DNA of 64,000 bases from Candidatus Niyogibacteria bacterium CG10_big_fil_rev_8_21_14_0_10_46_36 (GCA_002772995.1 PFCO01000008.1:23150-87149); one strand, 5' to 3'. Positions 11,658 through 20,977 are shown, numbered from the stretch's first letter. Notes: generated from the sequence alone by a model not told the origin. Translations and numbers: made by a program.

Positions 11658-12014
11658 ATGAACGAAGAACAAAAAAAGAAAAGATCGGTAGTTTTTTGGG
11701 TTGCGTATGCTGTATATTATGTAATTACCTTTTTTACGGCTCCGTGGTTCCGGGCAAAATTATATCTTGCTTGGGATGAATATCAGGAGTTCGGGCATTA
11801 TCGGGAACGGGTATCCGTTGTGGACGTTATCTGGGCTATGCAGCATTTTTTTGCGGATAAATGGGAGCGGCAGTATTATTATAGGCAACGCATTAAACGG
11901 TACCCTCGCTTACGCTGGCTTGTTCTGTTCACTCCATGGATATTTGAAAAGCCGGCAATGTTTGATTTAATAGTGCGGGAGGGGCTCACAAAAAAAGTTT
12001 TGCGGGAGGTATGA
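11658..12014 (+). CDS. Hypothetical protein (118 aa) with N-terminal TM helix
   Basis: ATG 11658 is preceded by GAGGAGG. The longer track ORF starts at the TTG inside the -35 box and is therefore unlikely. Confidence 0.55.
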   Translation: MNEEQKKKRSVVFWVAYAVYYVITFFTAPWFRAKLYLAWDEYQEFGHYRERVSVVDVIWAMQHFFADKWERQYYYRQRIKRYPRLRWLVLFTPWIFEKPAMFDLIVREGLTKKVLREV

Positions 12015-12260
12015 ATGGGGCTTACTATCATGCTGGGCGGCAAGTGTTTACGCGCTCTGGCGGAGCGCGGGGAATGCGAGATACTTATGAGAAGGTCTTA
12101 CGCTCGCATTATCGATCCAGGCAACATTATTGCTATCCCAATTGTTCTTGCTCGCGAACAAAATATAGAACACATGCCTGTTCTTGTTGAGAGCATACAA
12201 GACACGAATAAGCGGGGCATAGTATCCGTCTCGCTCAAAAGAGCAGAAGAAAAAAAATAA
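12015..12260 (+). CDS. Hypothetical small protein (81 aa)
   Basis: ORF immediately after the upstream stop, followed by a terminator at 12283-12321. Confidence 0.4.
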   Translation: MGLTIMLGGKCLRALAERGECEILMRRSYARIIDPGNIIAIPIVLAREQNIEHMPVLVESIQDTNKRGIVSVSLKRAEEKK

Positions 12261-12282
12261 ATCCCAAGACGCTGTTTTAGCT

Positions 12283-12321
12283 GCGGCCGAACGAAATATG
12301 TTCGGCCGTTTTTATTTTTTT
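12283..12321 (+). terminator. Rho-independent terminator (CGGCCGAAC-gaaatat-GTTCGGCCG, then TTTTTATTTTTTT)
   Basis: Seen in sequence. Confidence 0.85.
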
Positions 12322-12347
12322 AATATTTGGTATAGTATGACTGCATC

Positions 12348-12557
12348 ATGAGAGAATATGTTTCAAATAGTGTATATGATTTGCGGAGCAAGCGGGGCAT
12401 CACACAGCAGGAGCTCGCAGACAGCCTAGGCGTTACCCGTCAGACCGTTATTGCGATAGAAAAAGGAAATTATATCCCTTCGGTGCTTTTAGCATTAAAG
12501 ATATCACGGTTTTTTAGGGAACCGGTTGAAAAAATTTTTATTTTTAGTAAGAAATGA
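12348..12557 (+). CDS. XRE-family helix-turn-helix transcriptional regulator (small Cro/C1-type)
   Basis: RGITQQELADSLGVTRQTVIAIEKGNYIPSVLLALKISRFF is a canonical HTH_3 domain (69 aa). Confidence 0.8.
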   Translation: MREYVSNSVYDLRSKRGITQQELADSLGVTRQTVIAIEKGNYIPSVLLALKISRFFREPVEKIFIFSKK

Positions 12558-12561
12558 TAGT

Positions 12562-12930
12562 ATGCACACTGTGTTTGCAAAGGAAATCATAATATCGGTC
12601 ATTCTTATAGCGCTTGGTATTCTGTTTTTGAATCCTTTTATGATATGGATGCCCGCACCCCTGCTCTATATGGTTAGCGCGGTATTCGTCATATTGTTCG
12701 CTGTGTTTTTGGTGTTTGTGTGGCGCGAGCGCGTGCGCGATGAACGCGAGGACTTGCATCGGATGATTGCGGCGCGCATCGGGTACTTGTTAGGCATGGC
12801 AACGCTTGCGAGCGTGCTTTTGGTGCAGGCGGTTATGACGCATCATACTGACCCCTGGATTATTGCGGCGCTTCTTATTATGGTCATGGGGAAGACCGTA
12901 GGCATGATCTATAGCAGGATGCGATATTGA
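12562..12930 (+). CDS. Hypothetical membrane protein (3 TM) paired with the XRE regulator
   Basis: In-frame ATG at 12562 just after the regulator's stop. The small-HTH plus membrane-protein pairing is a common two-gene module. Confidence 0.5.
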   Translation: MHTVFAKEIIISVILIALGILFLNPFMIWMPAPLLYMVSAVFVILFAVFLVFVWRERVRDEREDLHRMIAARIGYLLGMATLASVLLVQAVMTHHTDPWIIAALLIMVMGKTVGMIYSRMRY

Positions 12931-12943
12931 TCTATCCACAGGA

Positions 12944-12971
12944 GATGTAAAGCATGCTTTACATCTTTTTT
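12944..12971 (+). terminator. Rho-independent terminator, perfect 11-bp palindrome GATGTAAAGCAT/ATGCTTTACATC, then TTTTTT
   Basis: Seen in sequence. Confidence 0.85.
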
Positions 12972-13096
12972 AAAAGCGCTATACTGGTGAGTATACCCGA
13001 GGAGAAGCTTGCTCTCGGCATAAGAACTTTTGCCAGTTGCTTCTAACGGGACAGGGTCTTTTTATTTTTTATTAGCACTTATAGATTTTTTTAATC

Positions 13097-13678
13097 ATGA
13101 AATCAAAAGGATTTATTATGCCGCTTATTATTGTGATAATCGCGGCGGGTATTATTGGCGCTGTAGTGTACATGCAGCGATCATCCGATACATACAAGGG
13201 CGATGACGCCATGATGGAAGATGACATGACGAAGGATGATGCCATGATGGAAGGAGATGAAATGATGGAAGGAGACGCAACCATGGAAGTACCCGCGCCG
13301 GGCAATGAAGGGGTTGATGAAATGATGGAAGGCGGTGATGTGATGATGGAGGGTGAATCTCCAAAAACAGTTACTGTCACCTATACGCAGAATGGCTTTT
13401 CTCCGTCTCCCGTGAATGTGAGTGTCGGTGACACGGTCCGTTTTATGAATGAAAGCGGGCGCTCATTTTGGCCTGCATCCGCGTTTCATCCGACACACAC
13501 CGTATATCCCGGTTCGGACATAAAAAAATGCGGCACAGCAGAAGCAGCAACTATTTTTGACGCGTGCCGAGAAATTGTTTCCGGGCAGTCGTACTCTTTT
13601 ACGTTCACTGAAGCGGGGACATGGAATTATCATGACCATCTGAACGCATCGGAGTTTGGTTCTATTATAGTGAAATAG
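13097..13678 (+). CDS. Exported Met-rich protein with C-terminal cupredoxin-like domain
   Basis: N-terminal anchor or signal MKSKGFIMPLIIVIIAAGIIGAVV. Residues 36-87 contain 12 Met in D-x-MMEG-[DG] repeats. The C-terminal roughly 100 aa resembles a cupredoxin-like beta-sandwich (VTVTYTQNGFSPSPVNVSVGDTVRFMN...GTWNYHDHLNASEFGSIIVK), but the canonical type-1 copper Cys ligand is not obvious. Confidence 0.7.
   Translation: MKSKGFIMPLIIVIIAAGIIGAVVYMQRSSDTYKGDDAMMEDDMTKDDAMMEGDEMMEGDATMEVPAPGNEGVDEMMEGGDVMMEGESPKTVTVTYTQNGFSPSPVNVSVGDTVRFMNESGRSFWPASAFHPTHTVYPGSDIKKCGTAEAATIFDACREIVSGQSYSFTFTEAGTWNYHDHLNASEFGSIIVK
13202..13357 (+). repeat. In-frame tandem-like coding repeats encoding a Met-rich low-complexity region (four MMEG units)
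   Basis: Nucleotide repeats gatgccatgatggaaggagat / gaaatgatggaaggagac / gatgaaatgatggaaggcggt / gtgatgatggagggtgaa. Confidence 0.7.
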
Positions 13679-13680
13679 CC

Positions 13681-14295
13681 ATGCGCGAAACCCGCACAGG
13701 ATTTGGAACGGTCATTCTGATAGTTTTTGCGGCGATTATTCTTTTGGGTGGCGGCGCATACATTGTTTTAGAGAAGAACACCGCTACTGATCGCGGCAGC
13801 GAGGAGCGTATGGATACCGAAAAAGATACGGGCATGACGGAGGAAGAAGCACCGAAAAAAGATGATAAAGATAATACCGCGAGCAAGGATTCAATGGATG
13901 GCGCAGACACAGAGACATCTTTTAGCAGCGTGGTGCTTGCGGGGTCGGAGTCACTGCTCCTTGATTTTTCAAAAATGGATTACGAAAAAGCTCTTTCCTC
14001 AAAAAAGATAGTAGTGCTTTACTTTTATGCGAACTGGTGCCCGATATGTAAGGCGGAATTTCCGAAGATGCAATCGGCGTTCAACGGGTTTTCAGATGCA
14101 GATATTATCGGTTTCCGTGTGAACTTTAACGATAACGAAACCGACCAATACGAAAAAGACCTTGCGCGCCAGTTCGGTGTTGCCTATCAGCATACGAAAG
14201 TCATCTTGAAAAATGGAGAGCGGGTACTCAAATCTCCTGAGTCATGGGAAGAGAACCGCTACATATCCGAAATTAATGCCATAGCAGTGAATTAA
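13681..14295 (+). CDS. Membrane-anchored thioredoxin-fold thiol:disulfide oxidoreductase (TlpA/ResA-like)
   Basis: N-terminal TM helix; VVLYFYANWCPICKAEFPK carries a CxxC (CPIC) motif in a thioredoxin-like context. Confidence 0.8.
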   Translation: MRETRTGFGTVILIVFAAIILLGGGAYIVLEKNTATDRGSEERMDTEKDTGMTEEEAPKKDDKDNTASKDSMDGADTETSFSSVVLAGSESLLLDFSKMDYEKALSSKKIVVLYFYANWCPICKAEFPKMQSAFNGFSDADIIGFRVNFNDNETDQYEKDLARQFGVAYQHTKVILKNGERVLKSPESWEENRYISEINAIAVN

Positions 14296-14297
14296 TT

Positions 14298-15002
14298 ATG
14301 CTTGATGTGTCGTTCATCGTCGCTTTTTTAGCAGGGTTGGTATCGTTTTTATCTCCCTGTGTGCTCCCGATAGTCCCGGGCTTTTTGGCGTATCTTTCAG
14401 GAACATCTACTTCGGAATCCGCAAGCCGGCTCCGTATCTTTTTGAACAGCTTTGTGTTTGTTCTCGGATTTTCGGTCGTATTTGCCCTGTTGGGTGTGCT
14501 CCTGAACACGCTTTTAGAATCGGTTGCGTATGATGTTCAGATATGGCTCGCGAGGATTGGCGGTGCGATCATTATCTTTTTTGGGTTGTATCTTGCTGGG
14601 CTCTTTCATATCCCGTTCTTAGAACAGCAGCATAAATTCGCCGTAAAAAAGAAATTCGCAAATTCATACATCACCTCATTTTTATTCGGCGCTGCGTTTG
14701 CTGCCGGGTGGACTCCATGCGTGGGTGCAGCGCTTGGCGCTATTCTTGGACTGGCGGCCACCGCTCCCGGGAAAGCATTTTATCTCTTGTTTATGTATTC
14801 ATTAGGGCTTGGCGTTCCGTTTCTGATCGTGGGGCTTTTTGTTTCCCGCGCAGAGGCTTATATCAACCGGTATGCAGGAGCACTTTCGTATGTAAGCAAG
14901 GCATTCGGCATCATTCTGATCGTTCTCGGAGTGCTTGTTTTTACCCAGAGCTTGAATTTGATAGCAAATTTCGGTTTTCTTAATAACTTGTTGCTGCAGT
15001 GA
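14298..15002 (+). CDS. ccdA: Cytochrome c-type biogenesis / thiol-reductant transfer membrane protein CcdA (DsbD transmembrane-core family)
   Basis: LSPCVLPIVPGF and GWTPCVGAALGA are the two conserved Cys motifs of CcdA/DsbD-beta. Six TM helices. Confidence 0.85.
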   Translation: MLDVSFIVAFLAGLVSFLSPCVLPIVPGFLAYLSGTSTSESASRLRIFLNSFVFVLGFSVVFALLGVLLNTLLESVAYDVQIWLARIGGAIIIFFGLYLAGLFHIPFLEQQHKFAVKKKFANSYITSFLFGAAFAAGWTPCVGAALGAILGLAATAPGKAFYLLFMYSLGLGVPFLIVGLFVSRAEAYINRYAGALSYVSKAFGIILIVLGVLVFTQSLNLIANFGFLNNLLLQ

Positions 15003-16132
15003 TGACTGTATCAAAACAAACAATCTTTTCTGTTGTAGTACTGGTGCTTGTTGTGGGTGCGATAGTGTATCTTGAATCACGGAAAGCGGACATCCCGTCA
15101 TTATTGGGGAACCAAGATGTAACTATCTTGAACGAAGGAGAGCGCGTTGCCGAAAAAGAAAAAAAATTTGAACCGGCAAAAGAAATATCAACGCCGGACG
15201 GATTTATCAATACCGATGGTGTTACGATAAGCGAGCTTATCGGTAAAAAAATCATCTTGGTTGATTTTTGGACATATTCCTGTATCAATTGCCAGCGCAC
15301 TACCCCGTATTTAAATTCATGGTATGAAAAATATGCGGACGACGGGCTGGTTATTTTGGGTCTTCACACGCCCGAGTTTGAATTTGAGAAAGATTATGAC
15401 AACGTGGCTCGTGCGGTGGAGAAATTTGGCATTGAATATCCGGTTGTATTAGATAACGACTATTCTACATGGCGATCGTATGAGAACCGGTATTGGCCAC
15501 GCAAATACTTGATAGATATAGATGGCTTTATTGTGTATGACCACATTGGTGAAGGAGCGTACGAAGAAACGGAACAGAAGATAGTAGAATTGTTAAATGA
15601 ACGGAGCGCCGTATTAGGAGAAGATGCGGTTACGCTGGACGAAAAAAACCCGGAGTATATCCAGGATGTTGAGTTTGATAAGGTGCAGTCTCCCGAAATG
15701 TATTTTGGGTACGACCGTTTGCAATATATTGGAAATACATTTTTACGCTCATGTTTGGATTCGGTTTGCGATTTTGATGCAAAAACAGATATTCAGCGAA
15801 ATACATTTAATTTAGATGGCTCGTGGCAGATAGGGCCGGAGGATACGGTGCTCAAGAACGGCGAGGGTGCAATCATACTCGGGTTTTCTGCGTCAAAAGT
15901 AAATCTTGTTGCCGGGACTGACGGTGGCGAGATAGAAGCAGAGATATATCTTGATGGAGAGCGGGTTGATGCGGCATACAAGGGCGCGGATGTTGATGAA
16001 AATGGTGTTGTGCGGTTCGGCGCACATGACCTGTATAATCTGATAGATTTGCATGGAGACTACGGCGAGCATGTCCTCTGGATAATGATAAAGCAGCCCG
16101 GACTCCAGGCATTTGCGTTTACGTTCGGGTAA
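14999..16132 (+). CDS. Membrane-anchored thioredoxin-like protein (CINC active site) with an extra C-terminal beta-rich domain; DipZ C-terminal-like
   Basis: N-terminal TM helix; WTYSCINCQRTTPYL CxxC motif; YWPRKYLIDIDGFIV is redoxin-like. A C-terminal domain of about 150 aa resembles the carbohydrate-binding-like domain found after the thioredoxin domain in mycobacterial DipZ (recognition from memory). Overlaps the ccdA stop by 4 nt. Confidence 0.75.
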   Translation: MMTVSKQTIFSVVVLVLVVGAIVYLESRKADIPSLLGNQDVTILNEGERVAEKEKKFEPAKEISTPDGFINTDGVTISELIGKKIILVDFWTYSCINCQRTTPYLNSWYEKYADDGLVILGLHTPEFEFEKDYDNVARAVEKFGIEYPVVLDNDYSTWRSYENRYWPRKYLIDIDGFIVYDHIGEGAYEETEQKIVELLNERSAVLGEDAVTLDEKNPEYIQDVEFDKVQSPEMYFGYDRLQYIGNTFLRSCLDSVCDFDAKTDIQRNTFNLDGSWQIGPEDTVLKNGEGAIILGFSASKVNLVAGTDGGEIEAEIYLDGERVDAAYKGADVDENGVVRFGAHDLYNLIDLHGDYGEHVLWIMIKQPGLQAFAFTFG

Positions 16133-16153
16133 TATGCAAAATGTATAAATAAC

Positions 16154-16179
16154 AAAAATACCGCCTATGCGGTATTTTT
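16154..16179 (+). terminator. Rho-independent terminator (ATACCGC-ctat-GCGGTAT, then TTTTT)
   Basis: Seen in sequence between the thioredoxin-like gene and msrA. Confidence 0.8.
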
Positions 16180-16193
16180 GTTATGATGACGAT

Positions 16194-16736
16194 ATGAATA
16201 AAAAAGTAATTGTTTTTGGCGGAGGCTGTTTTTGGTGCACCGAAGCCGTGTTCAAAATGCTTAAGGGTGTTCTTTCTGTAACCCCGGGTTATGCGGGCGG
16301 TACGACAAAAGACCCTTCCTATGAAGACGTATCAGCGCATAAAACAGGACATGCCGAAGTCGTGCGCATTGAATATGATGCTGATATCATGCCGCTCCAT
16401 GATTTGTTAACGGTATTTTTTGCAACGCATGACCCGACAACGCCCAACCGCCAGGGAAATGATGTCGGTGAACAGTATCGCTCCATTATTTTGTACACGG
16501 ACGAAGAGCAAAAAAAAGAAGCGGAAGCGTTTATCGAAAAATTAAACGGATCAATGGAGGAAGGCGAGCCAATAATAACCGCAATACAGCCGCTTGATGC
16601 GTTTTATGAAGCAGAAGATTATCACAAAGATTATTTTGAGAAAAATCCGCAAAATCCCTATTGTCAAATAGTTATCAACCCCAAGCTCGACAAGGTCCAA
16701 AAGGAATTTGCAGAGCTGGTAAAAGAAAATGAATAG
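16194..16736 (+). CDS. msrA: Peptide methionine sulfoxide reductase MsrA
   Basis: GGGCFWCTEAVF active-site motif, GYAGG, HAEVVRIEYD. ATG 16194 is chosen because the longer track ORF overlaps the terminator hairpin. No signal peptide. Confidence 0.9.
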   Translation: MNKKVIVFGGGCFWCTEAVFKMLKGVLSVTPGYAGGTTKDPSYEDVSAHKTGHAEVVRIEYDADIMPLHDLLTVFFATHDPTTPNRQGNDVGEQYRSIILYTDEEQKKEAEAFIEKLNGSMEEGEPIITAIQPLDAFYEAEDYHKDYFEKNPQNPYCQIVINPKLDKVQKEFAELVKENE

Positions 16737-17274
16737 TATGCACGAACACACTCATGGGCAGGAACACGCGGGACATGTGGATACGTCAGCGATTCGCCGT
16801 TCATTCCGCGATTTTATTCCCCTTGTGGTTATTTTTGGGGTTATTGCTCTTTTCACGATTATGCAAAGCATGCGAGCGGGTGCGTGGGAGACCGCGTATC
16901 TTATGCGCAATTTTATGGGAGCATTTTTTATCGTATTCGGAGGATTTAAAATCATACGATGGAAGGGCTTTGTGGATGCATACCAGATATACGACATTGT
17001 CGCAAAACGAAGTAGGGTGTATGGGTATACATACCCCATAATAGAGTTAGGGCTTGGGTTTTCGTATCTTTTTTCGTTCCAACTTGCTCTTGTTCAAGTA
17101 ATAACAATAGCAATCATGTGCATCGGGGCTATTGGAGTAGGGCAGGAGCTAGTGAAAAAGAACACCATCCCATGTGCTTGTCTTGGTGTGGTGTTTAAAA
17201 TACCTATGACCAAAGTAACGTTTTTTGAAGACATTCTCATGGCGGCAATGGCTGCGGGGATGTTTTTTGTGTAA
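16729..17274 (+). CDS. MauE/DoxX-like redox-associated membrane protein with His-rich N-terminus
   Basis: Four TM helices and a conserved-looking PCACLG Cys pair near the C-terminus. The N-terminal MHEHTHGQEHAGH is His-rich. Family assignment is by resemblance only. Confidence 0.55.
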   Translation: MNSMHEHTHGQEHAGHVDTSAIRRSFRDFIPLVVIFGVIALFTIMQSMRAGAWETAYLMRNFMGAFFIVFGGFKIIRWKGFVDAYQIYDIVAKRSRVYGYTYPIIELGLGFSYLFSFQLALVQVITIAIMCIGAIGVGQELVKKNTIPCACLGVVFKIPMTKVTFFEDILMAAMAAGMFFV

Positions 17275-17287
17275 TACTGAATTGTGT

Positions 17288-18049
17288 ATGTTTGAATTAA
17301 CTAACAGGGTGGCGTTAGTGACAGGAGCGCGTCGAGGTATGGGGCGTACGCATGCGCTTGCGTTGGCGCATCAAGGCGCTTCCGTTGCGGTAACTGACAT
17401 TGATGCGAATGAGTGCATGCCGGTTGTGGAAGAAATAACAAAAGCGGGAGGCAAGGCGGCATGTTTCAAAATGGATGTTTCCAATAAAGCAGAAGTGGAA
17501 GCAGTGTTTGATGATGTTATCAAACAGTTTGGGAGGCTCGATATTTTGGTGAACAATGCGGGTATTTATAAATCGCGCCCCGCGCTAGATATAACGGAAA
17601 AAGAATGGGACCAAATGATAGATATAGATCTCAAGGGGCAATTTTTGTGCGCTCAGCGCGCAGCACGCGAGATGGCAAAAAATTCTTGGGGTAGGATTAT
17701 TAACATTGCCTCAATTGCTTCGGGGCAGACGGGTGTGGGTATTTTGGGTGGCACCCACTATACAGCGGCAAAGGGCGGAGTTATCGGGATGACGGAATCG
17801 CTTGCTATAGAATTTGCGCCATTGGGTATTTTGGTAAACGCTATAGCCCCGGGCGCTATTGATACGCCGATGGTAAATGCAGCAGAGATGCCAAAGGAGG
17901 CAATGGAGGGGCTCATTGCTTCTTTGCCGCTGAAACGGATAGGAAAGTCCGAAGAAGTGTCTGCCGCTGTAGTGTTTTTGGCTTCGGATGAGGCAAGCTA
18001 TATTACCGGTTCTACGATATATGTAGATGGCGGGTGGCTTGCGGCGTAG
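17288..18049 (+). CDS. SDR-family oxidoreductase (FabG-like 3-oxoacyl-ACP reductase family)
   Basis: TGARRGMG Rossmann motif, NNAG, catalytic Y-x3-K (YTAAKGG), PGAIDTPM. Start at ATG 17288 after the upstream stop. Confidence 0.85.
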   Translation: MFELTNRVALVTGARRGMGRTHALALAHQGASVAVTDIDANECMPVVEEITKAGGKAACFKMDVSNKAEVEAVFDDVIKQFGRLDILVNNAGIYKSRPALDITEKEWDQMIDIDLKGQFLCAQRAAREMAKNSWGRIINIASIASGQTGVGILGGTHYTAAKGGVIGMTESLAIEFAPLGILVNAIAPGAIDTPMVNAAEMPKEAMEGLIASLPLKRIGKSEEVSAAVVFLASDEASYITGSTIYVDGGWLAA

Positions 18050-18232
18050 TGTTCAGTTATCCACTTGTAATTTTTGCGGGAAAGAGTACTATGAAGATAG
18101 CAGTACTCTTATATAGGGCGGTTCCGATCAAATAATTTTTTATATGCGTCCAAATCGCGAAAATCCGAGGATTTTATGCCGAGGGCGCACACTATATAAG
18201 AGCGGACTAACTGCCAAAAAGGAGTACTGCAA

Positions 18233-18263
18233 CAAAAAAATCCCACATGCTGGGGATTTTTTT
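18233..18263. terminator. Bidirectional rho-independent terminator (ATCCC-acatgctg-GGGAT, flanked by A-run and T-run)
   Basis: Seen in sequence, downstream of the minus-strand ZIP gene. Confidence 0.75.
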
Positions 18264-18288
18264 GTTTTTAAGATACTGTTTTTAGGAG

Positions 18289-19053
18289 CTACTCAAAGAA
18301 AAGCAAGGAGAACATTGCGGCAATTCCTACGAGGATAAAGAGTATTTCAAGGAGCGATTGTTTTGTGCCGTGCTGCTTATGAAGCTCGGGGATAAGATCT
18401 GCGGTTGCAATATAGATAAAGTTTCCCGCTGCAAGCGCAATGATAAAGGGGAGCAGCGGCTCTATGGTACCCCCAAAGATAACTACAAGAAGAACGCCCG
18501 TTATAGCAACTAGTGCAGAGAGGAAATTAAACCAGAGCGCTTTTGCTTTTGAATATCCTGCGTGAATCAGTATGCCAAAATCCCCGATTTCTTGAGGAAT
18601 TTCATGAAGGATTATCGCAAGTGTTGTCGCAATGCCCACCTCAACACTTATAAGATAGCTTGCGCCGATAATAATGCCGTCTACGAGGTTGTGGAGGCCG
18701 TCCGAAAGCAGAATGAGCCTGCCCACAGGAAGAATGTCTTGGCAGTCTTCGCAATCTGTAGGTTTTTCGTGGTGGTGATGGTGCCAGCCGAGTATTTTTT
18801 CAAATATAAAAAAGAATACAATGCCCGCGATAACGAGAAGCGGAATAAGCGGCGAGCCGCCGCCCGTCTCGAGTGCCTCGGGAATCAGGTGCAAAAAAGC
18901 GTCGCCGAGAAGCGCACCTATCGCAAGCGCGACAAGAAAAAATACCGCTTTGCGTATCTTTTTTTCATCTATTGAGATGATGATAAGTCCGATAAGCGCG
19001 ATAAGGCTTACCGCAAAAACACTTATGAGAGCATAGAATGTGTGTGTTTCCAT
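18289..19053 (-). CDS. ZIP-family divalent metal (zinc) transporter, ZupT-like
   Basis: HHHHHE His-rich loop and HEIPQEIGDFGILI signature of ZIP transporters. Ribosome-binding site AAGAGGA upstream on the minus strand. Confidence 0.85.
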   Translation of the reverse strand: METHTFYALISVFAVSLIALIGLIIISIDEKKIRKAVFFLVALAIGALLGDAFLHLIPEALETGGGSPLIPLLVIAGIVFFFIFEKILGWHHHHHEKPTDCEDCQDILPVGRLILLSDGLHNLVDGIIIGASYLISVEVGIATTLAIILHEIPQEIGDFGILIHAGYSKAKALWFNFLSALVAITGVLLVVIFGGTIEPLLPFIIALAAGNFIYIATADLIPELHKQHGTKQSLLEILFILVGIAAMFSLLFFE

Positions 19054-19133
19054 ATATCCTCTTTTTATATTAAAATGGACCTTTGCATTTGACTATAGCG
19101 CATACGCACACCATGTCAAGTAGATGCGAATTA

Positions 19134-19163
19134 TTTGCATTTATTTTGTGTGTGCGCTATTAT
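19134..19163 (+). promoter_or_regulatory. Candidate promoter TTTGCA-18nt-TATTAT for the small Cys-rich ORF, within the Zur/ZIP divergent region
   Basis: Seen in sequence; weak -35 box. Confidence 0.3.
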
Positions 19164-19192
19164 ATTGAAAATCCCAAACCAAGGAGGTATAT

Positions 19193-19381
19193 ATGAGCAA
19201 GACCACTGATGGCCTGAGTGTTTTTTTGTGCCATACGGGGAGTTGTTGTGCGAGCATCAGTTCCACAGAAGACGGAGGTATGCGTATTGAGGATGCTGAT
19301 AAGCCAGAACGCGGCGGTATCACTCTTACCCGGGATGAGGTTGCGGAGCTTAAGCGAGCAATACAGAACGGCAATATATAG
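19193..19381 (+). CDS. Small Cys/His-containing protein (62 aa), stand-alone unit in the Zur/ZIP locus
   Basis: Strong ribosome-binding site AAGGAGG 5 nt before ATG and its own terminator hairpin at 19394-19417. N-terminal motif FLCHTGSCC resembles the second small ORF at 21654. Confidence 0.55.
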   Translation: MSKTTDGLSVFLCHTGSCCASISSTEDGGMRIEDADKPERGGITLTRDEVAELKRAIQNGNI

Positions 19382-19390
19382 TTCTTTTAT

Positions 19391-19417
19391 AAGGCCGCGC
19401 ACGAACGCGGCTTTATT
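19391..19417 (+). terminator. Rho-independent terminator (GCCGCG-cacgaa-CGCGGC, then TTTATT)
   Basis: Seen in sequence. Confidence 0.7.
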
Positions 19418-19433
19418 GTGACATTGTGTGGGA

Positions 19434-19439
19434 TATAAT
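19434..19439 (+). promoter_or_regulatory. TATAAT -10 hexamer 6 nt upstream of the Fur-family ATG, implying a leaderless mRNA
   Basis: Seen in sequence: ggaTATAATggtcgtATG. Confidence 0.4.
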
Positions 19440-19445
19440 GGTCGT

Positions 19446-19865
19446 ATGAAGCAAAAAAAAGAAAAATTTAAAACAATACTTCATGATGCGGGTTATAGAG
19501 TTACGGCAGAGAGAATGGCGACGCTCCTGCTTCTTTCTCGTTCAAAAAAGCCCCTTTCCGTGCATGATATCGCGCGCGTATTGCGAAGCGTGCTTGACCA
19601 AGCGACAGCATACCGCATACTTCGATTATTTGAGCGATCAGGAATTGTCCGGCGTGTTGAATTTGGTAAAGGACGCGTGTATTACGAAATAGCTGATGCG
19701 AAAGACCATCACCATATCGTATGCACTGAATGCGGTGCTATAGAGGATTTTGAAGGATGTACCGCAGAACGCATAGAAAAAGAGGCGCTTAAACAATCAA
19801 GGCGCTTTTCTTCCGTGCGGAAACACTCGTTAGAATTATTCGGCGTTTGCAAATCATGCGCATAA
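19446..19865 (+). CDS. zur: Fur-family metalloregulator, probably Zur
   Basis: Fur-family winged-helix N-terminus with a C-terminal HHHIVCTECG...C metal site. Divergent from a ZIP zinc transporter, which suggests Zur. Confidence 0.8.
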   Translation: MKQKKEKFKTILHDAGYRVTAERMATLLLLSRSKKPLSVHDIARVLRSVLDQATAYRILRLFERSGIVRRVEFGKGRVYYEIADAKDHHHIVCTECGAIEDFEGCTAERIEKEALKQSRRFSSVRKHSLELFGVCKSCA

Positions 19866-20977
19866 ATGCACGCATTATATTGCATATGTGGTGTGCCGGT
19901 CTTTTTATTCTAGGGCCTGTATTTGTTTTGGCTCAAGAACAAGCAATTCCCGAAATGTTTCGATTGAAAGTGCTGGATATTACTCAGGAAGGAGAACGCC
20001 CCATTATCGGGACGGACGCCAAAGCGTTTTTTCAAAATATACGAGGCGAAGTTCTTTCGGGCGAGAAAAAAGGCGATACTATAGAACTTGAAAACGATAG
20101 GATGCGTCTTCGTGTGGGAGATACTATATTTGTGCGCGCGTTGGAAGCGCCCACCGGGGAAACATTTTATACTGTGGATGACGTCGATAGGCGCAATTCT
20201 TTGTTCTTTTTTGTAGGATTATTTATGTTGCTTGTGATCGTATTCGGGGGGAAGCAAGGCATCCGCGCGCTTATGAGTCTTGCCGGCAGTTTTTTTGTTA
20301 TTTTTTATTTTTTGCTTCCGTCTATTCTTTCGGGCGTATCGCCACTCTTGGTGAGCGCAGGTGTTTCTATTGTTATTCTGGTGATCGCTATTTATTTTAC
20401 TCATGGCTTGACGCGCACATCAACAGCGGCACTCCTCGGTACCATTGTTACTATTTGTGTTACCGTGCTTTTAGCGCTCATTTCGGTACGGGCAACCCGT
20501 TTATCCGGTTTTACCGATGACACAAGTGTTTTTTTGAATTTTAATACCGCGGGCGCTTTGGATTTTCAGGGATTATTACTGGGAGCCATTATTATTGGTG
20601 TTTTGGGACTTCTTGATGATATAGCAATAACGCAAGCGGCTGCGGTAAAAGAGATTTTTCATGTGGACGCCTCGCTTTCGCGGAAAGATGTGTATGCTCG
20701 CGCGCTTCGTATAGGCAAGGAGCATGTAGGAGCGTTAGTGAATACGCTTGCACTTGCGTATACGGGCGCGGCACTTCCGTTATTGCTTCTCTTTTATGGA
20801 TCTGAAGCATCTGTTTTTTTGATAATAAATAGAGAAATATTTGCATCAGAAATTATCCGCACTATGGTAGGAAGTATTGGCATTATTCTTGCGGTGCCCA
20901 TTACTACGGGTCTTGCGGTATTATTTTTGGTGCAGAAAAAAAGAAGGGATCCGGAAAAAGGAAACATCTGTGCTTGA
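19856..20977 (+). CDS. YibE/F-like polytopic membrane protein
   Basis: N-terminal TM helix, extracytoplasmic segment of about 100 aa, then 6 TM helices. Resemblance to the YibE/F family is from memory only. Start is ambiguous (19847 or 19856) and overlaps the zur stop. Confidence 0.55.
   Translation: MRINARIILHMWCAGLFILGPVFVLAQEQAIPEMFRLKVLDITQEGERPIIGTDAKAFFQNIRGEVLSGEKKGDTIELENDRMRLRVGDTIFVRALEAPTGETFYTVDDVDRRNSLFFFVGLFMLLVIVFGGKQGIRALMSLAGSFFVIFYFLLPSILSGVSPLLVSAGVSIVILVIAIYFTHGLTRTSTAALLGTIVTICVTVLLALISVRATRLSGFTDDTSVFLNFNTAGALDFQGLLLGAIIIGVLGLLDDIAITQAAAVKEIFHVDASLSRKDVYARALRIGKEHVGALVNTLALAYTGAALPLLLLFYGSEASVFLIINREIFASEIIRTMVGSIGIILAVPITTGLAVLFLVQKKRRDPEKGNICA

Follow-up and report, generated by a model that had tools for sequence, protein, structure and literature searches.

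A disordered methionine-rich tether as a candidate Cu(I)-capture arm on a cupredoxin-like protein of Candidatus Niyogibacteria

Overview

In a stretch of 64,000 nucleotides from Candidatus Niyogibacteria bacterium CG10_big_fil_rev_8_21_14_0_10_46_36, a very small bacterium from groundwater (GCA_002772995.1, PFCO01000008.1:23150-87149; termed the window hereafter), the gene at 13097-13678 (+ strand, counted from the first letter of the window) encodes a 193-residue membrane-anchored protein in which a methionine-rich repeat region precedes a cupredoxin-like domain. The interpretation favored here, with rather more confidence than doubt, is that the Met-rich region serves as an arm that captures or relays Cu(I) as part of an operon for copper and redox stress of the envelope. 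Judged by alignment, the repeat is a Met-rich tether that varies among lineages and belongs to a kind common on cupredoxins of bacteria of the Candidate Phyla Radiation (CPR, Patescibacteria), and the domain is an uncharacterized branch of the cupredoxin superfamily that is devoid of the cysteine ligand and marked by four invariant histidines (His4). Met-rich copper-binding segments and cupredoxins are both already known, and the repeat itself offers no new principle. Accordingly, the interest arises mainly from the protein family and its context of DoxX, VKOR, thioredoxin (Trx) and CopA genes, and less from the repeat.

If the arm functions as proposed, the disordered acidic tether would join the membrane anchor to the extracytoplasmic cupredoxin-fold domain, and its thioether clusters (MM, M-x2-3-M) would be transient ligands of Cu(I) at the cell surface and, given their chemistry, of Ag(I) too. 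The arm could buffer the metal or hand it to the tethered domain and to neighboring thioredoxin-type proteins. Together with the genes that follow it (Trx-CcdA-TlpA-MsrA-MauE), the cupredoxin-like gene resembles a module for copper and oxidative stress of the envelope, for which Scs plus CueP of Salmonella would be an analogue.

The Met-rich Tether

The tether (13202-13357, + strand) comprises residues 36-87 of the open reading frame (ORF) and is translated as DDAMMEDDMTKDDAMMEGDEMMEGDATMEVPAPGNEGVDEMMEGGDVMMEGE. Its 52 residues include 12 Met, 20 Asp or Glu and 7 Gly, arranged in four D-x-MMEG units (residues 48-53, 54-59, 74-79 and 81-86) with an additional DAMMED at 37-42. The original prediction of a Met-rich repeat region with 12 Met in 52 residues and four D/E-x-MMEG units therefore holds as written, and the enrichment is non-random: Met makes up 2.17% of the 61 other ORF-derived proteins of the window, so that at least 12 Met in 52 residues have a binomial probability of about 1e-9, and the richest 52-residue stretch elsewhere in the window features 6 Met. 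The Met residues are spaced as MM and MxxM in a background of Asp and Glu, which together account for 38% of the tether. In the AlphaFold2 (AF2) model, which was built on 115 homologues, the protein consists of three parts, namely a helix (residues 7-28), a low-confidence tether, and a beta-sandwich (residues 91-192) with a predicted local distance difference test score (pLDDT) above 90 for most of its length. Across residues 36-87 the pLDDT is 52-58, and the tether is predicted to be disordered. With its MM/MxxM clusters, five MME units and placement in a flexible extracytoplasmic segment, it matches in sequence the Met-rich Cu(I)/Ag(I)-binding segments, which constitute a functional class and not a homologous family.

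Imperfect tandem repeats had likewise been noted in the nucleotide sequence, which is borne out by two arrays detected with Tandem Repeats Finder, one at 13202-13289 (period 18, 5.1 copies, 72% matches) and one at 13307-13350 (period 21, 2.1 copies, 82% matches). The repeats probably arose by slippage of an 18-21-nt unit, with the number of units drifting among lineages. Among the close relatives (homologues P0002-P0005 and P0007, 60-78% identity), all of which possess Met-rich tethers, the number and position of the units vary: the window protein carries three or four units before its VPAPG motif and two after it, and P0003 one before and five after. Beyond these close relatives, the expectation that orthologues would share the Met-rich segment was borne out only in part, as about 90% of them feature short Met-free linkers of 15-45 residues that are rich in Q, N, S, T, E and P and highly variable in length. 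Of 82 loci, 10 feature at least 4 Met in the linker, and among 137 profile-ranked representatives, the 60 residues that precede the domain include 4 or more Met in 15. Compared across its homologues, the Met-rich tether is a lineage-specific add-on and not a feature of the family.

This distribution, together with the disorder of the region and the tandem repeat at the DNA level, could be explained by a neutral spacer, i.e., a slippage-prone ATGATGGAAG-type repeat that expanded in a flexible hydrophilic linker and in which Met is incidental. Such an origin is in line with the widely variable length of the Met-free linkers and with the finding that close relatives differ in whether units precede or follow the VPAPG motif. 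Nevertheless, stretches with at least 7 Met in 50 residues occur in just 5 of 744 neighboring genes compared with 5 of 75 family genes (Fisher p=0.001), which argues against a general linker style of CPR bacteria. Met-rich linkers yet recur independently in separate bacterial and archaeal branches of the family (L004, L006, L022, L027, L031, L059) as well as in type-1 cupredoxins, in the partner Trx, and in cupredoxin-Trx fusions. Moreover, repeats that are only 72-82% identical do not represent a recent, undecayed expansion. Overall, a neutral origin is considered unlikely.

The occurrence of the tether on other proteins deserves particular attention. Two of the five Met-rich neighboring genes encode anchored Trx directly downstream of the family gene in the orthologous operons L003 and L082. 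In P0343 and P0369, a Met-rich linker joins a type-1 cupredoxin to Trx, and the Trx encoded at 13681-14295 in the window shares 50% identity with the Trx portion of P0369 (E 3e-56). P0204, in which a Met-rich linker joins a His4 domain to a type-1 cupredoxin, is a singleton fusion and thus weak Rosetta-stone evidence. Within the family, Met-rich tethers co-occur with Trx or redoxin neighbors (4/8 versus 3/72, p=0.0014). Taking the tethers on type-1 cupredoxins and on Trx, the fusions, and this co-occurrence together with the copA neighbors described below, the tether appears to behave as a module that travels with ectodomains of copper proteins and thiol oxidoreductases. A reusable Met-rich tether that is found specifically on cupredoxin and thioredoxin ectodomains suggests a route of copper capture and of loading of surface proteins in cells without a periplasm. 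Type-1 cupredoxins fused to a WCPxC thioredoxin domain via Met-rich linkers were found in CPR bacteria in P0298 as well as in P0343 and P0369.

The copper link of the tether is supported indirectly, since D-x-MME tethers are usual on type-1 cupredoxins of CPR bacteria and since a CPC-type P1B ATPase gene (copA) adjoins the family gene in 5 of the 82 loci (L025, L033, L043, L056, and, with a copZ-like gene, L062). Canonical CPR type-1 cupredoxins with the complete H...C...H...M set, e.g., P0269 (DAMMEGDQMMEDDSDSMMEEDSMME...), display the D-x-MME(G/D) tether with at least 4 Met in 62 of 91 cases, a share that is perhaps somewhat inflated, as these 91 proteins were retrieved with a query having a short Met-rich linker. 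At least two MM pairs are present in 31 of the 91, and their Met content is 8.2% overall. Besides this possible inflation, several further points weigh against a Cu(I)-capture arm. The domain works without the tether, as is evident from the roughly 90% of family members that have none, and the metal affinity of the tether would be modest because it contains neither His nor Cys. Furthermore, no gene for a copper ATPase, a copper chaperone or a copper sensor lies within the window; the regulator candidates found there are an XRE-type helix-turn-helix (HTH) protein and, farther off, a Fur-family protein beside a ZIP transporter. Finally, the clustering of the four His in the domain that would receive the metal relies on alignments and strand register.

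Embedded in the tether is the motif M-E-VPAPG-NEGVD-EMME (13283-13330, + strand), whose counterpart M(K/P)VP(A/V)PG-x5-EMIV occurs in many Met-poor homologues. The linker motif (M)-P/K-V-P-x-P-G-x5-E-M-I-V lies between anchor and domain in P0008, P0011, P0028, P0075 and P0080 and in the loci L005, L011, L015 and L024; its counterpart in the window reads VPAPGNEGVDEMME. It was not found in the other proteins of the window and of the loci, and it may act as a docking or processing motif. In this regard, the tether could also be regarded as a segment that binds hard cations (Ca2+, Mg2+, Fe or Zn) through its 20 acidic residues or that docks electrostatically, for instance to Trx, to the membrane protein of the DoxX/MauE type or to the surface of a host cell, with Met being secondary. 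The share of Asp plus Glu, the resemblance of VPAPG...EMIV to a short linear docking motif, and a ZIP transporter and a Fur-family regulator encoded 5 kb downstream fit this explanation. Still, acidic Met-free linkers are common in the family, and acidity is thus not a distinguishing trait; the ZIP and Fur genes belong to separate transcription units, the motif has no link to a known partner, and nothing specific speaks in support. A role in hard-cation binding or docking is consequently regarded as highly improbable.

The Cupredoxin-fold Domain

The C-terminal domain (residues 91-193; 13367-13675, + strand) had been described as cupredoxin-like, and it does adopt a cupredoxin fold. AF2 yields a beta-sandwich with the Greek-key arrangement of type-1 blue copper proteins (PF00127), Foldseek retrieves plastocyanin and amicyanin (E about 2e-7), and the family profile matches amicyanin (E 1.5e-7). 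Aligned by hhalign with 42 canonical type-1 cupredoxins of CPR bacteria, the domain reaches a Prob of 98.2% and an E of 4e-14. The Pfam scores stay below the gathering thresholds, with 19.2 versus 21.2 bits for Copper-bind (PF00127) and 17.6 versus 27 for Cupredoxin_1. On the basis of these profile and structure matches, the homology of the domain to type-1 cupredoxins is secure.

The ligand set His...Cys...His...Met(/Gln) of the type-1 blue copper proteins is not retained. According to the hhalign map, Ser123, a variable position, is aligned with the N-terminal His ligand, the segment "CSVG" to which the Cys belongs is deleted, and the Met ligand is replaced by Glu186; the single type-1 ligand with a counterpart is the C-terminal His, at His181. 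A missing type-1 Cys with Y-H-D-H in its place had been recognized previously, which agrees with the YHDH sequence at residues 178-181 (13628-13639): in 253 homologue motifs, H-x-H has D (191), N (59) or E (3) at its center, and C in none of them. The phmmer alignment with amicyanin places Asp180 opposite Cys92, and no thiolate is available under either the phmmer or the hhalign alignment. In addition, the AF2 model leaves only two residues for the ligand loop that connects the last two strands. By these alignments, the domain is not a blue-copper electron carrier, as its type-1 Cys, Met and N-terminal His ligands are lost. The automatic UniRef name "Blue (type 1) copper domain-containing protein" (UniRef100_A0A2H0TEY3) is therefore misleading, given that no type-1 site can be built from these residues.

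Multicopper oxidases and two-domain laccases are defined by at least two cupredoxin domains with a trinuclear cluster between them, by eight His in four HxH motifs, and by an HCH that includes the type-1 Cys. These features are missing as well, since the protein consists of a single domain with one HxH (HDH) plus HPTH, without HCH and without a Cu-oxidase match in Pfam. The CopC/PcoC family (PF04234) gave no match at E<=0.1 in Pfam or NCBIfam. What is conserved instead is a set of residues invariant in 115 sequences, comprising P103, A127, H131, P132, H134, Y137, P138, C145, D155, C157, F168, G174, W176, H179, H181 and G188. The first invariant His pair, H131-P-T-H134 (13487-13498, + strand), is located, together with Y137 and C145, on a family-specific insertion of 24 residues (A129-T152) that follows strand 4 and is absent from type-1 cupredoxins; a phmmer search of residues 113-163 against the PDB sequences retrieved nothing, i.e., the insertion has no solved relative. 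The second pair is part of Y178-H179-D180-H181 (13628-13639, + strand) and flanks the position of the type-1 Cys. H179 aligns with the Tyr preceding the type-1 Cys ligand, and H179 and H181 lie on one face of the strand. The window protein is among the top hits of the family profile and contains all invariant residues of the signature WPASAxHPTHTxYPGS...C...FDAC...W.YH(D/N)H.

From strand register and alignment, the four His (H131, H134, H179, H181) are predicted to share a single site at the flank of the barrel, in a position corresponding to that of the type-2/type-3 sites in nitrite reductase and in multicopper oxidases. The C-terminal peptide AGTWNYHDHLNASEFG aligns with AGYWHYHDHVVGTEHG of domain 1 of a two-domain laccase, both sharing YHDH. 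In that laccase domain, the two His of the HxH motif bind the trinuclear copper cluster, and no type-1 copper is present. The likeliest cofactor appears to be a type-2-like copper site with His ligands, in view of the invariant His4 cluster, whose HDH half has its counterpart in the trinuclear-cluster motif of laccase domain 1. The invariant residues C145...D155-A-C157 (13529-13567, + strand) probably provide a disulfide or a redox-active Cys pair. This pair is dispensable for the His4 core, because the loop from C145 to C157 is missing in the His4-domain copies of P0122 and P0145. Both of these giant proteins (1082 and 959 aa) contain the His4 domain twice, alongside Cys/His-rich repeat modules (CHSG...HGxGHG).

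Family Distribution and Gene Neighborhoods

The His4 family is large. A word-indexed search retrieved 494 homologues, and an exhaustive profile search at E<=1e-30 yielded 948 clusters at 50% identity; family members were found in 350 species genomes. The best 80 loci, to which the statement on taxonomic restriction applies, all belong to CPR/Patescibacteria or DPANN archaea. No description of such a His4 cupredoxin-like family was found in the literature on cupredoxins with CPR, DPANN or DoxX. In the 82 loci, bacterial copies share on average 54% of the domain residues with archaeal ones, compared with 56% identity among bacteria and 59% among archaea. Such near-equal identity across CPR and DPANN suggests either a very strong constraint or gene transfer between the domains of life.

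The neighborhoods of this uncharacterized family, which in the loci examined is confined to CPR and DPANN, feature DoxX/MauE and VKOR genes most commonly, but also Trx/CcdA genes and sometimes CopA. A gene for a membrane protein of about 120 residues adjoins the family gene in 26 of 82 loci and lies within 500 bp in 25 of these 26, with a median gap of 11 bp; Pfam assigns DoxX to 20 and MauE to 17 of the 26 neighbors. A VKOR gene then follows in 12 loci. The order cupredoxin-like, DoxX-like, VKOR was observed in both CPR and DPANN (L013, L025, L039, L050, L052, L053, L062, L068, L076). The linkage to DoxX and VKOR is tight, because no DoxX or VKOR match is found 2-6 kb away, and a DoxX, VKOR, Trx or CcdA gene within 2 kb is a feature of 38/82 loci. 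In L062 (3517-7084), this three-gene order is preceded by a copZ-like gene and copA. DoxX genes are also part of copper/gold-induced and of envelope oxidative-stress regulons (PMC5413113, PMC7907618). The MauE protein of the window shows no BLASTP similarity to the DoxX-like neighbor family, and both are linked at the level of the Pfam clan only.

In the window itself, the gene is the first in a tight string on the same strand that encodes, in this order, the cupredoxin-like protein, Trx, CcdA, a TlpA-like protein, MsrA and MauE, which would presumably be co-expressed. The Trx-like protein (13681-14295, + strand; WCPIC motif; Pfam Thioredoxin, E 1.7e-10) is anchored by a transmembrane (TM) segment, and its gene starts 3 nt after the stop of the cupredoxin-like gene. 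It is followed by a CcdA/DsbD-type membrane electron transporter (14298-15002, + strand; Pfam DsbD_TM, E 2.6e-18), a TM-anchored TlpA/ResA-like redoxin with a C-terminal Thioredoxin_10 domain (14999-16132, + strand; Thioredoxin_10, E 8e-30; AhpC-TSA and Redoxin, E about 1e-10), the methionine sulfoxide reductase MsrA without signal peptide or TM segment (16167-16736, + strand; Pfam PMSR, E 6e-63), and a membrane protein of the MauE/DoxX clan with a His-rich N-terminus MHEHTHGQEHAGH (16729-17274, + strand; Pfam MauE, E 1e-13). The full six-gene arrangement recurs only in L003 and L082. A function of the family as a dedicated CcdA substrate was considered and dropped; the Trx/CcdA context occurs in only 3/82 loci.

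The composition of this string bears on the suggestion, also made in the original prediction, that the tether is a sink for reactive oxygen species recycled by Msr. Surface-exposed Met would then sacrificially scavenge H2O2, HOCl or Cu-generated radicals and thereby protect the copper site and the CxxC neighbors, and they would be restored by the reducing pathway from CcdA to Trx/TlpA together with MsrA. The suggestion is right in that msrA is a member of the tight string here and in L003; in addition, msrA or msrB genes lie near the family gene in L017 (msrA, 24 bp away), L028 and L048 (msrB-like, 127 bp away). CcdA plus two extracytoplasmic Trx-fold proteins could move reducing power outward, Met-rich tethers co-occur with redoxin neighbors as stated above, and the adjacent Trx in L003 and L082 bears a Met-rich tether of its own. 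However, the MsrA proteins of the window, L003 and L017 have neither a signal peptide nor a TM segment and thus cannot reach a tether outside the cell. Thioredoxins are not known to reduce Met sulfoxide by themselves. Moreover, from a generic antioxidant role it would not be expected that the tether is so closely tied to cupredoxin domains in particular. An antioxidant tether is accordingly judged about as doubtful as a neutral one.

The neighborhoods would be accounted for more broadly by a proposal that includes the Cu(I)-binding tether but is itself rather improbable. The His4/Cys2 domain may represent a novel type of single-domain, type-2-like copper redox protein of CPR and DPANN that serves as an extracytoplasmic electron sink or source for the DoxX/MauE-VKOR and Trx/CcdA thiol-disulfide machinery, with Met-rich tethers as built-in Cu(I) loading arms. 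Its activity could be copper-dependent thiol oxidation, the reduction of cupric ions, or participation in superoxide scavenging in the manner of the mycobacterial DoxX-SodA complex. This copper-redox role would explain the DoxX(-VKOR) genes directly downstream in a third of the loci, the cupredoxin-Trx fusions, the loss of the type-1 electron-carrier site, and the identity of about 54% that bacterial copies share with archaeal ones. Quinones and respiratory chains are generally not known from CPR bacteria and DPANN archaea. If true, the proposal would bear on disulfide formation and repair in reduced-genome symbionts without quinones, and likewise on their survival of copper or oxidant stress.

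Some further proteins were observed around the family. An additional N-terminal domain with the sequence PAHIHxGxCP (weak Pfam match to CHRD, E 0.004) is present in P0006, P0048, P0252 and L082:5470-6372, where it sits between the anchor and the Met-rich linker, and it also occurs on the type-1 cupredoxins P0285 and P0363. Near family genes, two more Met-rich proteins were detected (L074:2325-2951; L062:318-998), of which one is secreted and has an MMNMMWGGW-type sequence and the other is a Gly/Met-rich membrane protein encoded upstream of copZ-copA. The genomic contexts of P0010 and of the fusion P0204 were uninformative.

Comparison With Known Systems

The closest architecture is that of the CPR type-1 cupredoxins themselves (P0269, P0259, P0307; annotated as "plastocyanin" or "cupredoxin domain-containing protein"), which share the order of anchor, D-x-MME(G/D) tether and cupredoxin domain. 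They keep H...C...H...M, whereas the window protein has lost the N-terminal His and the Cys segment, has Glu for Met, and has gained the 24-residue insertion with H131, H134, Y137 and C145. Likewise, the copper ligand set of amicyanin and plastocyanin (PF00127) is not kept, and the ligand loop is cut to 2 residues. Domain 1 of the two-domain laccases (SLAC-type multicopper oxidases) is also a cupredoxin domain without a type-1 site and with His-x-His motifs.

Clusters of the types MxM, MM and MxxM in flexible extracytoplasmic segments beside cupredoxin-type folds are typical of CueO, PcoA/CopA and PcoC/CopC. The comparison with CopC/PcoC/CueO-type clusters made in the original prediction is therefore valid for the kind of motif. 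It does not extend to a sequence relation, since the window protein has no Pfam match to CopC or multicopper-oxidase families. Furthermore, the segment is a loop or helix over the substrate site in those proteins, whereas the window tether is a Met/Asp/Glu/Gly repeat outside the domain.

CopI keeps a Cys-containing copper center, which has no counterpart in the window domain. This periplasmic protein of Rubrivivax gelatinosus, which is involved in copper tolerance, is a cupredoxin with disordered His/Met-rich copper-binding modules and has been proposed to be a modular copper buffer (PMC13308877). Compared by description, it resembles the window protein in combining a cupredoxin-type fold with a disordered Met-containing module. 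The modules of CopI are His-rich and His/Met-rich, and one of them is internal (PMC13308877), whereas the window tether is free of His, N-terminal and membrane-anchored and belongs to a domain without a Cys ligand. With regard to the gene string, Scs thiol reductases cooperate with the copper protein CueP (PMC10907172); CueP of Salmonella has no sequence relation to the window protein. CupA of Streptococcus pneumoniae (CupA-CopA) binds Cu(I) via Cys and Met and faces the cytoplasm, and the window is without copA.

Gene, Membrane Anchor, and Flanking Features

The product of the ORF at 13097-13678 is identical to the NCBI entry PIR69375.1 ("hypothetical protein", Candidatus Niyogibacteria bacterium CG10_big_fil_rev_8_21), which was called from Met8 and comprises 186 residues; the members of the 90% cluster differ solely in the called start codon. 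Conservation of KSxGFI(I/M)PLII in the orthologues P0002 and P0004 speaks for the longer form that begins at 13097. An exported protein had been predicted, and the anchor agrees with this: the hydrophobic N-terminal helix (residues 7-28; 13115-13180, + strand), interpreted as a transmembrane signal anchor, is preceded by Lys2 and Lys4 and followed by acidic sequence, and several homologues show lipobox-like SGC/AGC ends in place of the end of the TM helix. The protein is thus very probably exported or anchored, and for the same reasons a topology with the N-terminus inside and the C-terminus outside, i.e., a membrane-tethered ectodomain, is likely.

In the 166-bp gap upstream of the gene, a promoter-like site (TTTACA-16-TATACT; 12958-12985, + strand) matches at 10 of 12 positions; it is weak, as the count of such sites does not exceed the shuffled expectation. 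An AT-rich hairpin followed by a T-run, read from the sequence at about 12943-12972, closes the upstream gene. The Rfam scan of 12000-19500 revealed no RNA element, and a sub-threshold snoRNA match inside the repeat was attributed to chance. Directly upstream of the cupredoxin-like gene (12348-12930), a gene for an XRE-type HTH protein overlaps that of a small membrane protein with four TM segments. This pair may constitute a local regulator, as it is conserved in the operons L003 and L082.

At the distal end of the string, the His-rich N-terminus MNSMHEHTHGQEHAGH of the MauE-family protein (16729-17274) resembles a metal-binding tail, and its gene overlaps the end of msrA by 8 nt. A short distance downstream, a metal-homeostasis cluster was found at 18289-20977, which consists of genes for a ZIP transporter with an HHHHH loop (18289-19053, - strand), the Fur-family regulator (19428-19865) and a YibE/F-like membrane protein (19847-20977).

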